Positions 8,662 to 10,789 of a stretch of 64,000 nucleotides of DNA are shown here, piece by piece. The stretch is from assembly GCA_013202975.1 (NCBI GenBank), contig JABMQY010000136.1, positions 6,178-70,177 on the forward strand, written 5' to 3'. Numbering within the stretch: position 1 is the stretch's first letter; each line of letters begins with the position of its first letter. This DNA comes from Candidatus Saganbacteria bacterium (GTDB lineage Bacteria > Margulisbacteria > WOR-1 > XYC2-FULL-46-14). The notes under the pieces were generated by a model. It had not been told where the DNA came from, did no database searches, and worked only from the letters and a program-made list of their open reading frames with translations. The position numbers and the translations under genes were made by a program.

Positions 8662-8695
8662 TGAAATTTTCTAGAAAACCGTACGATACAATATA
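8662..8695 (+). promoter_or_regulatory. TGAAATTT-N14-CGATACAATATA motif; ATG 8696 exactly 12 nt after CGATAC (leaderless)
   Basis: Motif copy. Confidence 0.55.
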
Positions 8696-9310
8696 ATGAA
8701 ATGCACGTCCCAAAGACCAATTCAAAATTGTAGAATACTAAATACAAGAAATCTGGTTGCGGCTAGACAAAACCAGCTAACCACCAGGTTGGGAGAAATC
8801 CCTTCTCATTTATTTTCTGCCCCCAATGCAAGAATTCAGGGATCATTTGTCCCTTCTCCCTCAGATTGCGAAGAGGGAAAGGATATCATTGTCTTTAGCA
8901 AAGAAATTAACCCTGAGGGATTTATGGTTGAAGAAGGTTATAGTTTCACTCTTCATTCAACCATCCCAAGAAAAAACTTTCTCACTATTTCCGGAGTAGC
9001 TTTTGGGCCAATCAACTTTGATGGAACAGTCGAAGCTGTTGAAGAAAAAACTGCCGAGTTTTTAAGCACTATAGGAATCTATGCCTTTTCCTTTATTAAA
9101 ACTCACGTTGGGGGATCTTTTGCTGTTCAGTTATCTCGTCAAATAATTGACGATGAGCTGGCTGACGATTTTCTCCTGGCATTTGCCCGGCATGCAGCAC
9201 CAACCTTTAGCGTCTATCAGTTTTGGGCAAATAAAACAGCAGATCCTTTTATTAGTAGAATCTTGCAAGTTGCTCCTCACGAAAGCCAATATCCCTCCTG
9301 CTTGCGTTAG
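8696..9310 (+). CDS. Hypothetical protein (204 aa), member of a local paralog family (C-terminal ..APHESQYPSCLR)
   Basis: ORF with a motif promoter. C-terminal similarity to 9380..10237. Confidence 0.55.
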   Translation: MKCTSQRPIQNCRILNTRNLVAARQNQLTTRLGEIPSHLFSAPNARIQGSFVPSPSDCEEGKDIIVFSKEINPEGFMVEEGYSFTLHSTIPRKNFLTISGVAFGPINFDGTVEAVEEKTAEFLSTIGIYAFSFIKTHVGGSFAVQLSRQIIDDELADDFLLAFARHAAPTFSVYQFWANKTADPFISRILQVAPHESQYPSCLR

Positions 9311-9332
9311 TCCCGCAAAAAAGCAAATTAAG

Positions 9333-9368
9333 TGAAATTTCTTGTCAAAAATGACGATATATATATAG
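9333..9368 (+). promoter_or_regulatory. TGAAATTT-N14-CGATATATATATAG motif followed by AGGTGAG RBS
   Basis: Perfect consensus copy. Confidence 0.6.
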
Positions 9369-9379
9369 AGGTGAGTATT

Positions 9380-10237
9380 ATGCCCAAATGTATTGGCCCG
9401 GCCCCAGCTTCAGGCTGCCGGCTTTTAGGACTACGGGATCATGTTGTTAAACACGCGACTCTTTTAACAACTCGCCCAAGTAAGTTAACCATCCACCAAT
9501 TAGCTAGTCCCAGTTCTGTTATCAAGGGGCTATACTATCCACCAGGCTGTCCTCAAGGTCAAGGGACAGTTGCTTTTAGCAGAAGAGAGAGCGATGGCCT
9601 TATAAATGATAAATCTCACACCGATATCGCTAGTGATTTAGGATTAAGGGTACAAGCCGGGCCTTGCAGTATTGGCGACGGAAGCGGAGTAAGAACCGGA
9701 CAGAGAGAGCTATCTGATCCAGACATAAAAGGATTTATCCTGCACCCAATCACTTTTGAAGGAGAGGAGAAGCCTCTTTTATCAATCCCAACAAAAGAGG
9801 ATTTTGGATCAATAAAAGTAGAAGCCCCTGACACACGATCATTAACATTTATGCAAATGGAAACCATGGTAGGAGGGGGCATCATCGCAATAATGTACAT
9901 CAACGCTCCTCACATGAGTGGGATGTGGGCAGTTACTCCTCGCTCCGGATTGACAGGGGAAATTCCTTATTTAATGAGGAGTGATTTTGTAGATACATTA
10001 TCACGCCATGTATCTCCAGACTTTACAATCATCCGATTCCTCGAAATGGAAATAAATACCTTTCGGCGAATGTTTAGCCCAGGGTTCGGAGTTGATAACA
10101 TTAATGAATATGCTCAAGAAAAGGTTTCTGAGAGAAAAACAACATTCCAAGAACCCCTCGCGGTATCGCATGAAGAGGTACTCAACCCCTCTTGTTTACG
10201 CTGGCCAAAAGAGATGCAACTAATACCCGAAGATTAA
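9380..10237 (+). CDS. Hypothetical protein (285 aa), paralog-family member (..AVSHEEVLNPSCLRW..)
   Basis: ATG 9380 follows the RBS. The in-frame upstream extension to 9332 overlaps the promoter motif. Confidence 0.55.
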   Translation: MPKCIGPAPASGCRLLGLRDHVVKHATLLTTRPSKLTIHQLASPSSVIKGLYYPPGCPQGQGTVAFSRRESDGLINDKSHTDIASDLGLRVQAGPCSIGDGSGVRTGQRELSDPDIKGFILHPITFEGEEKPLLSIPTKEDFGSIKVEAPDTRSLTFMQMETMVGGGIIAIMYINAPHMSGMWAVTPRSGLTGEIPYLMRSDFVDTLSRHVSPDFTIIRFLEMEINTFRRMFSPGFGVDNINEYAQEKVSERKTTFQEPLAVSHEEVLNPSCLRWPKEMQLIPED

Positions 10238-10245
10238 AAATAGGA

Positions 10246-10279
10246 TGAAATTATTTCAAATACTGCATGATAATATAAC
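10246..10279 (+). promoter_or_regulatory. Degenerate motif TGAAATTA-N14-TGATAATATAAC; ATG 10280 12 nt after the -10-like element
   Basis: Same 14/12 spacing as the consensus copies. Confidence 0.4.
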
Positions 10280-10789
10280 ATGAAAGTAACTAAACGGCCA
10301 ACCACAACTCCCCCGCAGTTAGCATTTAAATCTGATCGAATTGTTCTATTCAAAGATATGCTCGAGCTAATCCCGGAAAACCTATTCCCCCAACAGCTTA
10401 TACATTCTCCCGACACAACGATTGTTCAGACCGGAACCAATGTCTCCCACGAAAAGGTATTGGGCATCATGCAAAGCATTGTTCATCTTACAGCTTCCTC
10501 CCAAGTAAGGGCTCTTTGTCCGGGATCCCTCTTTAAACAATTGCCGGAAACAATGGGAGAGTTTAATCTGCTGCTGACAAATGTTTTTGGAATAAAAGAT
10601 GATCAGTTTGAAGAGCTCCTTGATACAGAAAGGGACCCCGACCTAAAAGCTTCCAGAAAAACACTTAAATGCTGGTGGGGACACGAGATATATATTAACA
10701 GCCCGCTAGGGATCCATTTTCTTTTAGACTTCGTAGATTCTCGCGTTAACGGATCATTAGATATCTTTTTGCCTCTGTTAGAGAGATAG
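10280..10789 (+). CDS. Hypothetical protein (169 aa) sharing a VSHE(K/E)VL motif with 9380..10237
   Basis: ORF; third gene of the tandem paralog array. Confidence 0.5.
   Translation: MKVTKRPTTTPPQLAFKSDRIVLFKDMLELIPENLFPQQLIHSPDTTIVQTGTNVSHEKVLGIMQSIVHLTASSQVRALCPGSLFKQLPETMGEFNLLLTNVFGIKDDQFEELLDTERDPDLKASRKTLKCWWGHEIYINSPLGIHFLLDFVDSRVNGSLDIFLPLLER

Follow-up and report, generated by a model that had tools for sequence, protein, structure and literature searches.

A tandem gene pair of a lineage-restricted cysteine protein family behind sigma-28-like promoters in Candidatus Saganbacteria

A window of 64,000 nucleotides (nt) from a Candidatus Saganbacteria metagenome-assembled genome (MAG; locus tags HQ564_) contains three consecutive genes, here called genes 1, 2 and 3 (Table 1). 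An earlier reading of the DNA (the original prediction) had taken them for a tandem array of three paralogs, each with its own copy of the bipartite promoter motif TGAAATTT-N14-CGATAT, and for a locally amplified, diverging family of the kind typical of effectors or surface proteins. The three open reading frames (ORFs) do exist on the plus strand where they had been predicted and match public gene calls. With moderate confidence we interpret them differently: genes 1 and 2 are an ancient tandem pair within a rare, lineage-restricted family of proteins with conserved cysteines, are preceded by sigma-28-like promoters and are accompanied by an unrelated orphan, gene 3, rather than forming a three-gene effector array with it.

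Genes 1 and 2 are true paralogs. They share 24% identity over 221 columns (BLASTP, E=5e-13), align through the whole family described below and have its invariant cysteines and motifs in common. The stretches that had been quoted for this pair, ..APHESQYPSCLR and ..AVSHEEVLNPSCLRW.. near the C-termini, were borne out, as they occupy the same alignment columns, and P-S-C is invariant in the four closest sequences. A second genome, represented by several metagenomes (loci L001-L006 among the related loci, which are numbered from L001) and by MAG contig CAYQVW010000016.1 (L010), has the same synteny, mazG / 231 aa / 107 aa / 206 aa / 291 aa / mfd (aa, amino acids), and the short and long pair is present there. 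Between the two genomes, the orthologous FtsH, FtcD, MazG, Mfd, GcvP and GcvT are 67-82% identical, the long paralogs (285/291 aa) 66% and the short paralogs (204/206 aa) 25%; the corresponding values for the 105-aa and 235-aa proteins of the same locus are 57% and 26%. The short copy matches its neighbour gene 2 with E=2e-10 and family members in other genomes with E=2e-16 and 2e-14, and no DNA-level repeat links the genes. Because the pair is syntenic in the second genome, the neighbour is no closer than members from other genomes and a nucleotide repeat is absent, the duplication is old: it took place before the window genome and this relative, with its 67-82% identical housekeeping proteins, had separated. 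What survives of the local amplification and divergence proposed earlier is thus the fast divergence of the short copy, not a recent amplification. The long copy is under ordinary purifying selection, with a degree of conservation like that of the less conserved housekeeping genes, and the short copy has evolved at a rate similar to that of the genome's least conserved genes. In both genomes the short copy has kept an intact frame, four cysteines and its own promoter. The short copy has lost two segments, among them the conserved H-x-D block; in the short paralogs, this block and the W-P-x-E tail are missing. Weakly, the short copy might be seen as a derivative of the long one that is non-catalytic or serves as its partner. 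The tandem arrangement of a short and a long gene was found only in the window genome and its relative (L001/L010), and the other members are single-copy in the stretches seen.

The family to which the pair belongs is small. A profile of four sequences, run against 1.84 billion cluster representatives in a full HMMER scan, retrieved 17 proteins, of which about 13 were left after removal of three repeat proteins judged spurious and one fragment of gene 1. The spurious matches (P0009, P0013 and P0015) are long repeat proteins in which a short Cys-Gly stretch was matched many times; in P0015, the only one of them inspected, Cys-rich units of the PPECxEGQ type are repeated in tandem. A 321-aa neighbour in L011 was also rejected as a family member. 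The remaining members have 258-367 aa and align end to end in a 15-sequence alignment. They display the motifs C-x8-9-C-R (N-terminal), T-T-R, I-K-G-L, a third Cys at about residue 57, D-x-Q-H-x-D-[IL]-A, W-G-F, W-A-V, S-G-L-T-G, F-L-x-x-L-A-R-H-V-x-P-x-F and a C-terminal P-[SN]-C-L-[RYQ]-W-P. Three of the cysteines are near-invariant and the fourth usually is present; in the four-sequence alignment C4, C13, R14, C57, H122, H178, H210 and C272 are invariant. Gene 2 is a full-length member (C4-x8-C13-R, TTR, IKGL, C57, H-x-D-I-A, WAV, SGLTG, L-x-R-H-V-S-P-D-F and PSC272LRWP). Gene 1 keeps C3, C12, C58, C202, ARHxxPxF and the C-terminal PSCLR, and has neither the D-x-Q-H-x-D-[IL]-A block nor the WPxExxL tail. 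In another member, P0018, the first Cys and the C-x8-C-R motif are regained if translation is taken to begin at an ATG further upstream, which is in frame and has a ribosome-binding site. When 5.8 billion proteins were searched by a word index, gene 2 retrieved only itself and one ortholog, to which the four-sequence profile added one more; a narrower family alignment used as locus query found one locus in GTDB genomes and one in JGI metagenomes. The source names of the clusters are Candidatus Saganbacteria, candidate division WOR-1 (UniRef A0A1F4RAU3) and Candidatus Margulisiibacteriota, besides one Falkowbacteria-labelled bin with the same sequence. The database entries A0A1F4RAU3 (UniProt; GenBank OGC05311.1, WOR-1) and MFA5839913.1 (Margulisiibacteriota), both annotated 'hypothetical protein' and falling into the clusters of P0012 and P0008, belong to this family; they resemble the window genes in the Cys pattern, the P-[SN]-C-L-x-W C-terminus and the promoter upstream, but are single-copy in the stretches seen.

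The promoter motif accompanies the family throughout. All 15 family genes examined, in 13 contexts, lie behind it, 14 of them directly, that is, with a motif of at most two mismatches within 55 nt of the start codon, and one through an operon partner. The mismatches number 1 and 0 at the two window genes, 1 and 0 in L001, 2 in L011, 1 in L012, 0 in L013, 1 in L014, 1 in L015, 2 in L016, 0 in L017, 2 in L018, 2 in L019 and 1 in L020; in L021, the motif (2 mismatches) is carried by a 184-aa gene, which the family gene follows. At the background rate obtained from window shuffles, the chance of at least 14 in 15 is about 1e-42. In L013 the copy at the family gene, between the pst-phoU and thiG operons, is the sole motif in 12.8 kb. 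Conservation is limited to the two blocks, the spacer being free to vary, and the start codons of the family genes follow 6-55 nt downstream. Because these contexts span GC contents of 0.38-0.48 and protein identities down to about 25%, the motif is maintained by selection, and recent common descent does not account for it.

In the window, the motif extends far beyond the pair. Allowing two mismatches, it occurs 18 times as against 1.7 expected, and every match is co-directional with a gene start 6-170 nt downstream. Seventeen transcription units, about half of those in the window, are motif-led (strong sites in Table 1). Twelve of these start with a gene lacking a Pfam domain, and the other five comprise two units for FGE-sulfatase-domain proteins, one for a HEAT-repeat protein, one for a cNMP-binding metallo-beta-lactamase protein and a GerMN unit. 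Core housekeeping functions are encoded by none of the 17 motif-led units versus 11 of the 18 motif-less ones (Fisher p=1e-4), the latter including dnaA, dnaN, gyrB-gyrA, yidC-jag-mnmE, folD, skp-lpxD, degT, mazG-ftsH and lpx genes. Several motif-less housekeeping genes show a canonical TATAAT, some with a TTGACA-like -35 element. Because the housekeeping units are without the motif and several carry TATAAT boxes, two promoter classes coexist in the window, and the motif class looks like a very large alternative-sigma regulon. A more serious rival than any considered further below is that the motif represents the main housekeeping promoter of the lineage, in which case the promoters of the pair would say nothing about a regulon. 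The high frequency of the motif (17 strong sites in 64 kb) would fit such a role; moreover, the motif can be read as sTGAAA-N18-GATATA, with a loose likeness to sigma-70 promoters, and an A/T-rich extension, ATATATAG, resembles a -10 element. However, it is precisely the housekeeping genes named above that lack the motif and in several cases have a TATAAT of their own, in L013 the family gene alone carries the motif, and the invariant CGA together with the AAA-N17-CGA spacing are hallmarks of sigma-28. We consider a housekeeping role unlikely, if still deserving attention.

For the alternative sigma factor, the reading we prefer, the details of the two blocks point to the sigma-28 type. The Escherichia coli sigma-28 consensus is TAAAGTTT-n11-GCCGATAA (PMC2859248), and the actinobacterial WhiG promoter is T(A/C)AA-N16-GCCGATAA with an invariant CGA core (PMC12871210). 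In the motif described here, AAA is followed after 17 nt by CGATA[TA], which is the spacing of the E. coli consensus. The -10 block reads CGATA[TAC] in 15 of the 17 strong window sites and AGATAA or CGAAAT in the other two. As in sigma-28 promoters, there are two asymmetric blocks, with an A-rich and then T-rich -35 element (xAAAxTTT) and with CGA followed by TA[AT]. We infer fairly strongly that the promoter would be read by RNA polymerase with an alternative sigma factor of the FliA/SigD/WhiG (sigma-28) type and not with the housekeeping sigma factor. No sigma factor of the FliA/WhiG family is encoded within the window. In L014, a 206-aa sigma factor, divergently oriented from the adjoining family gene, has FliA_WhiG as its best NCBIfam match (E=9.6e-23). 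It forms an operon (1857-2983, minus strand) with a 90-aa ORF upstream of it, and a weak motif copy, TGAAATCC-N14-CGATAA, precedes both. The 90-aa protein has no match to FlgM or another family and is, by its size and position, a candidate anti-sigma factor.

Several observations weigh against the overall interpretation. The -35 block, TGAAATTT, starts with TG and not with TA as in sigma-28 promoters (G for A at the second position). The GC that precedes CGA in the latter is absent, and the bases found there, mostly nA (GA, CA, TA, AA, TC), contain little information; unlike in sigma-28 promoters, the downstream ATATATAG is conserved. The FliA_WhiG match of the sigma factor in L014 scores 81 bits and thus falls under the curated cut-off of 189.6 bits. 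With about half of the units in the window, the motif leads unusually many units for an alternative sigma factor, and among the genes seen is no flagellar or chemotactic gene; no flagellar gene was seen in the related loci either. The function of the promoter, and the leaderless translation proposed below, are read from sequence geometry, and the idea of a metal site, to which we turn next, takes only the conserved cysteines as its basis.

An AlphaFold model of the family protein was obtained with 15 sequences (pLDDT 79.6, pTM 0.82; predicted local distance difference test and predicted template modelling score), after a run with four sequences had been rejected as too poor (pLDDT 49.7). Neither a sequence-profile match to the family in the PDB nor a counterpart of the predicted fold in the PDB or BFVD was found. 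Our working model, of low confidence, is a soluble protein in which the four cysteines would bring the N- and C-termini together at a centre with a metal (Zn or Fe-S) or with redox activity. As in Cys4 zinc and iron-sulfur proteins, four cysteines are conserved (N-terminus, internal loop and C-terminus), and they are kept even in the fast copy. However, no sequence or fold match links the family to zinc-ribbon, treble-clef or Fe-S families, and its spacing, C-x8-C ... C ... C, corresponds to no described signature; the likeness is one of resemblance only. Across the family contexts there is no conserved neighbour: thiG adjoins in two loci only, and other neighbours encode SOD, a Cu-oxidase_4 protein, a zinc-ribbon protein, a Ser/Thr kinase and a subtilase. 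As consistent neighbours are missing, guilt by association yields no function. The family gene is located directly upstream of thiG in L013 (6001-6946) and L014 (3071-4081), and in L013 thiG is followed by thiH, thiS, thiE, thiF and genes for a cysteine desulfurase, DsrE and TusA. This adjacency may reflect shared ancestry rather than a functional link.

Maximal Kyte-Doolittle scores over 19 residues are 1.16, 1.24 and 0.89 for the products of genes 1, 2 and 3, respectively, the N-termini are polar, none of the three carries a membrane segment, a lipobox or a signal peptide, and repeats are absent. Because the family lacks signal peptides and membrane segments, a cytoplasmic location can be argued. 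These features do not conform to the effector or surface-protein pattern that had been proposed. In one form of that idea, the pair would encode surface proteins or secreted effectors, and diversifying selection from host or phage would drive the divergence of the short copy. Such selection would fit the low identity of the short copy and of the first gene of the cluster (25-26%, compared with 67-82% for housekeeping proteins), and the restriction of the family to one lineage would be in line with it, too. Besides the missing export signals, however, the long copy is 66% conserved, the invariant Cys pattern survives even in the fast copy, secretion-system genes are absent from the surroundings of the family gene in all 13 contexts, and PADLOC and PHROGs contain no match for the pair. 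An effector function of the pair is therefore improbable in our view. For none of the six proteins of the cluster do Pfam, NCBIfam, PADLOC or PHROGs give a match.

The motif copies at the three genes were evaluated by a position weight matrix (PWM) built without the sites at 8662 and 9333. Training sites score 33-47 bits and the background at most 9 bits; the held-out copies at 9333 and 8662 reach 40.3 and 25.4 bits, respectively. The copy at 10246 scores 14.1 bits (rank 20 of 128,000), and its mismatches include the C of the CGA core, which is present at 8662 and 9333 and is replaced in TGATAA at 10246; this site also scores as a weak sigma-70-like site. The three copies had been described as perfect, perfect and degenerate, which is right for the second and third (Table 1), whereas the first has one mismatch (CGATAC). 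In L001, the ortholog of gene 1 is preceded by TGAAATTT-N14-CGATAA, and that of gene 2 by the same perfect promoter as in the window, with the ATATATAG extension conserved almost base for base. The claim that each gene has its own regulon promoter is thus supported for genes 1 and 2, and it is uncertain whether the degenerate copy of gene 3 is functional. The motif is a conserved bipartite sequence and as such could be an operator bound by a regulator, or a dispersed repeat, instead of a promoter, but this is very improbable: it lacks symmetry, points in every case in the direction of the gene that follows and stands 6-55 nt from start codons, has two conserved blocks with a freely varying 14-nt spacer and no flanking repeat structure, and its block spacing equals that of sigma-28 -35 and -10 elements.

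Taking the motif as a promoter, we infer fairly strongly that the paralogs would each be transcribed separately from TGAAATTT-N14-CGATAT. The ATG of gene 1, which was fixed by aligning Cys3 with the first Cys of the family, has no ribosome-binding site upstream; because it starts 7 nt after the -10 hexamer, the mRNA of gene 1 would, with similar confidence, be leaderless or nearly leaderless. The leader of gene 2 would have 19 nt, with GAGGTGA (9368-9374), the Shine-Dalgarno sequence ahead of the ATG at 9380, serving as ribosome-binding site. Gene 3 starts 7 nt after its motif copy, in the same geometry as gene 1, and might be weakly expressed from this site, from the sigma-70-like reading of the same bases, or by read-through. 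Since no terminator-like structures were seen on the plus strand between the genes, read-through could contribute to the expression of genes 2 and 3. In many motif-led genes the start codon lies only 6-10 nt behind the -10 block, with no Shine-Dalgarno sequence. Starts of this type are located in the window at 8696, 10280, 13783, 26019(-), 31145, 32978 and 52247 and in the relatives at L013 6001, L015 2888, L019 729 and L021 1396; they also occur at some TATAAT-led genes (degT at 56141, and 30431). This distribution suggests that leaderless mRNAs may be common in the lineage.

Gene 3 does not belong to the pair. In BLASTP comparisons with genes 1 and 2, its best E-values are 0.91 and 3.7, for scraps of 6-10 residues, and hhalign assigns it a probability of 0.3% against the 15-sequence family profile. 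The Cys and motif positions conserved in the family are all missing from it, tblastn found no second copy in the window or any related locus, and the word-indexed search of 5.8 billion proteins retrieved no homolog but itself. The only stretch said to link it to gene 2, VSHEEVL/VSHEKVL, is identical in six of seven residues, but this was matched or beaten in 9 of 300 shuffles, and its relative position differs (mid-protein in gene 3, C-terminus in gene 2). Gene 3 and the 154-aa gene of the cluster are both missing from the syntenic relative. These results identify gene 3 as a lineage-specific orphan that is unrelated to the pair and was inserted between it and mfd. Descent of all three genes from one locally amplified family, for which this heptapeptide and the motif-like sequence with its 7-nt leaderless geometry could be adduced, is effectively refuted already; of the three-paralog array, the part that concerns genes 1 and 2 remains.

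Sigma-28-type factors outside motility offer a precedent for the proposed regulon. WhiG acts in Streptomyces sporulation (PMC12871210) and sigma-28 at late genes in Chlamydia (bioRxiv 10.1101/322701). As in these regulons, sigma-28-type promoters here would drive non-flagellar genes, with no flagellar genes in view, and a further parallel may be the GerMN-domain gene downstream of one motif copy. However, the WhiG and Chlamydia regulons are small and experimentally defined, whereas the one considered here is deduced from DNA sequence, is apparently very large and consists mostly of proteins without a family. A bolder proposal, speculative and in our opinion rather doubtful, is that the Cys-rich family is a universal and defining component of a very large, sigma-28-derived, non-flagellar regulon of lineage-specific 'dark' genes, many of them leaderless, which would serve a differentiation or life-stage programme like that of WhiG or of sigma-28 in Chlamydia; a protein of new fold and its degenerate partner would act in this programme, for example as a metal- or redox-sensing sigma regulator.

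By itself the array is modest, consisting of one old duplication and an orphan gene; what gives it value is the family and the promoter class anchored to it. The family has neither an assigned domain nor a fold match in the PDB, and its named members come from Saganbacteria (WOR-1) and Margulisiibacteriota. Both are non-photosynthetic groups described as sister to Cyanobacteria. The occurrence of one promoter type at every family member examined, at identities of about 25%, is unusually clean comparative evidence for a real, conserved promoter class. It provides a handle for defining the regulon genome-wide in an uncultured group, for which the literature searched yielded nothing usable on promoters, sigma factors or flagella (Saganbacteria and Margulisbacteria), and it points to leaderless translation being common in this lineage.

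Table 1. Features of the gene cluster and strong motif sites, in window coordinates.
Feature	Position	Strand	Remarks
mazG-ftsH-ftcD	ending 6975	-	flanks the cluster
Weak promoter variant, GCAAGTTT-N14-CGAATA	7065..7092	+	upstream of first cluster gene; read directly from the sequence
First cluster gene, 235 aa	7096..7803	+	syntenic in relative
Second cluster gene, 105 aa	7805..8122	+	syntenic in relative; 57% identical to ortholog
Third cluster gene, 154 aa	8174..8638	+	not in relative; weak coding signal
Motif copy 1, TGAAATTT-N14-CGATAC	8662..8689	+	1 mismatch; upstream of gene 1
Gene 1, 204 aa, short paralog	8696..9310	+	
Motif copy 2, TGAAATTT-N14-CGATAT with extended ATATATAG	9333..9368	+	perfect; upstream of gene 2
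Gene 2, 285 aa, long paralog, HQ564_10445	9380..10237	+	
Motif copy 3, TGAAATTA-N14-TGATAA	10246..10273	+	3 mismatches; upstream of gene 3
Gene 3, 169 aa, orphan, HQ564_10450	10280..10789	+	3' end overlaps mfd 3' end by 12 nt
mfd	10778..13738	-	flanks the cluster
17 strong motif sites	1579, 3055, 8662, 9333, 13746, 15160, 16702(-), 16705, 24876(-), 26053(-), 30357(-), 31111, 32940, 36592, 52213, 58202(-), 61709	as marked	

The pair and the orphan belong to a run of six plus-strand genes between mazG-ftsH-ftcD and mfd. The coordinates of all six ORFs equal the gene calls on identical public contigs, and codon usage is positive in the annotated frame only, the 154-aa ORF being borderline. Gene 2 is 100% identical to the GenBank entry 'MAG: hypothetical protein HQ564_10445 [Candidatus Saganbacteria bacterium]', and gene 3 carries a locus tag of the same genome. 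The true start of the first cluster gene probably is the ATG at 7114, behind GGAGG, rather than 7096. The weak promoter variant at 7065 is kept in L001 as ACAAGTTT-N14-CGAATA, followed by a GGAGG Shine-Dalgarno sequence, with CAAGTTT-N14-CGAATA as the common core; by PWM it ranks 23rd with 4.7 bits, in a neighbouring register. Despite this conserved position and promoter, the first cluster protein (window 7096-7803 versus L001 8279-8974; 235/229 aa) is only 26% identical between the genomes. Neither it nor the 105-aa protein matches a family. The 154-aa gene is preceded by a canonical sigma-70-type promoter, TTGCAG-N17-TATAAT. An Rfam search of 6500-11000 gave no match on either strand.

Other motif-led units of the window show further features near their 5' ends. 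Downstream of the perfect copy at 15160 lies a 29-aa ORF (15194..15283) and then, about 240 nt from the motif, the GerMN-domain gene at 15436; the interval 15160-15435 could be a long leader or encode a small protein or small RNA. Stem-loops are found at the predicted 5' ends at 30329-30290(-), 36620-36660(+), 58174-58135(-) and 61737-61775(+) and, in L011, at about 5042-5000(-). Two of them have the common arm CATGAACC...GGTTCATG, and these structures could be stabilising hairpins or a regulatory element. At 1289-1469, a motif reading TGAAGTTT..GGATAA (21.5 bits) precedes, in leaderless geometry, a 48-aa ORF (1323..1469), perhaps a small gene that annotation has missed. The replication origin probably lies within the window: in the region 44000-47900, the minus-strand genes dnaA (45580..46959) and dnaN (44193..45323) are located at the minimum of the cumulative GC skew, and DnaA-box-like TGTGGATAA sequences occur upstream of dnaA and of folD (about 51200-51260). 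Finally, intergenic tandem repeats are found at several places. They include about four CCCGTAAC-like units upstream of 30431 (about 30360-30420), CATCAAA-like units upstream of 58327 (about 58240-58300), about three copies of TTTTACAC upstream of skp (about 29400-29435) and G/T-rich GGATTT/GTTGGG runs upstream of folD (about 51150-51210).

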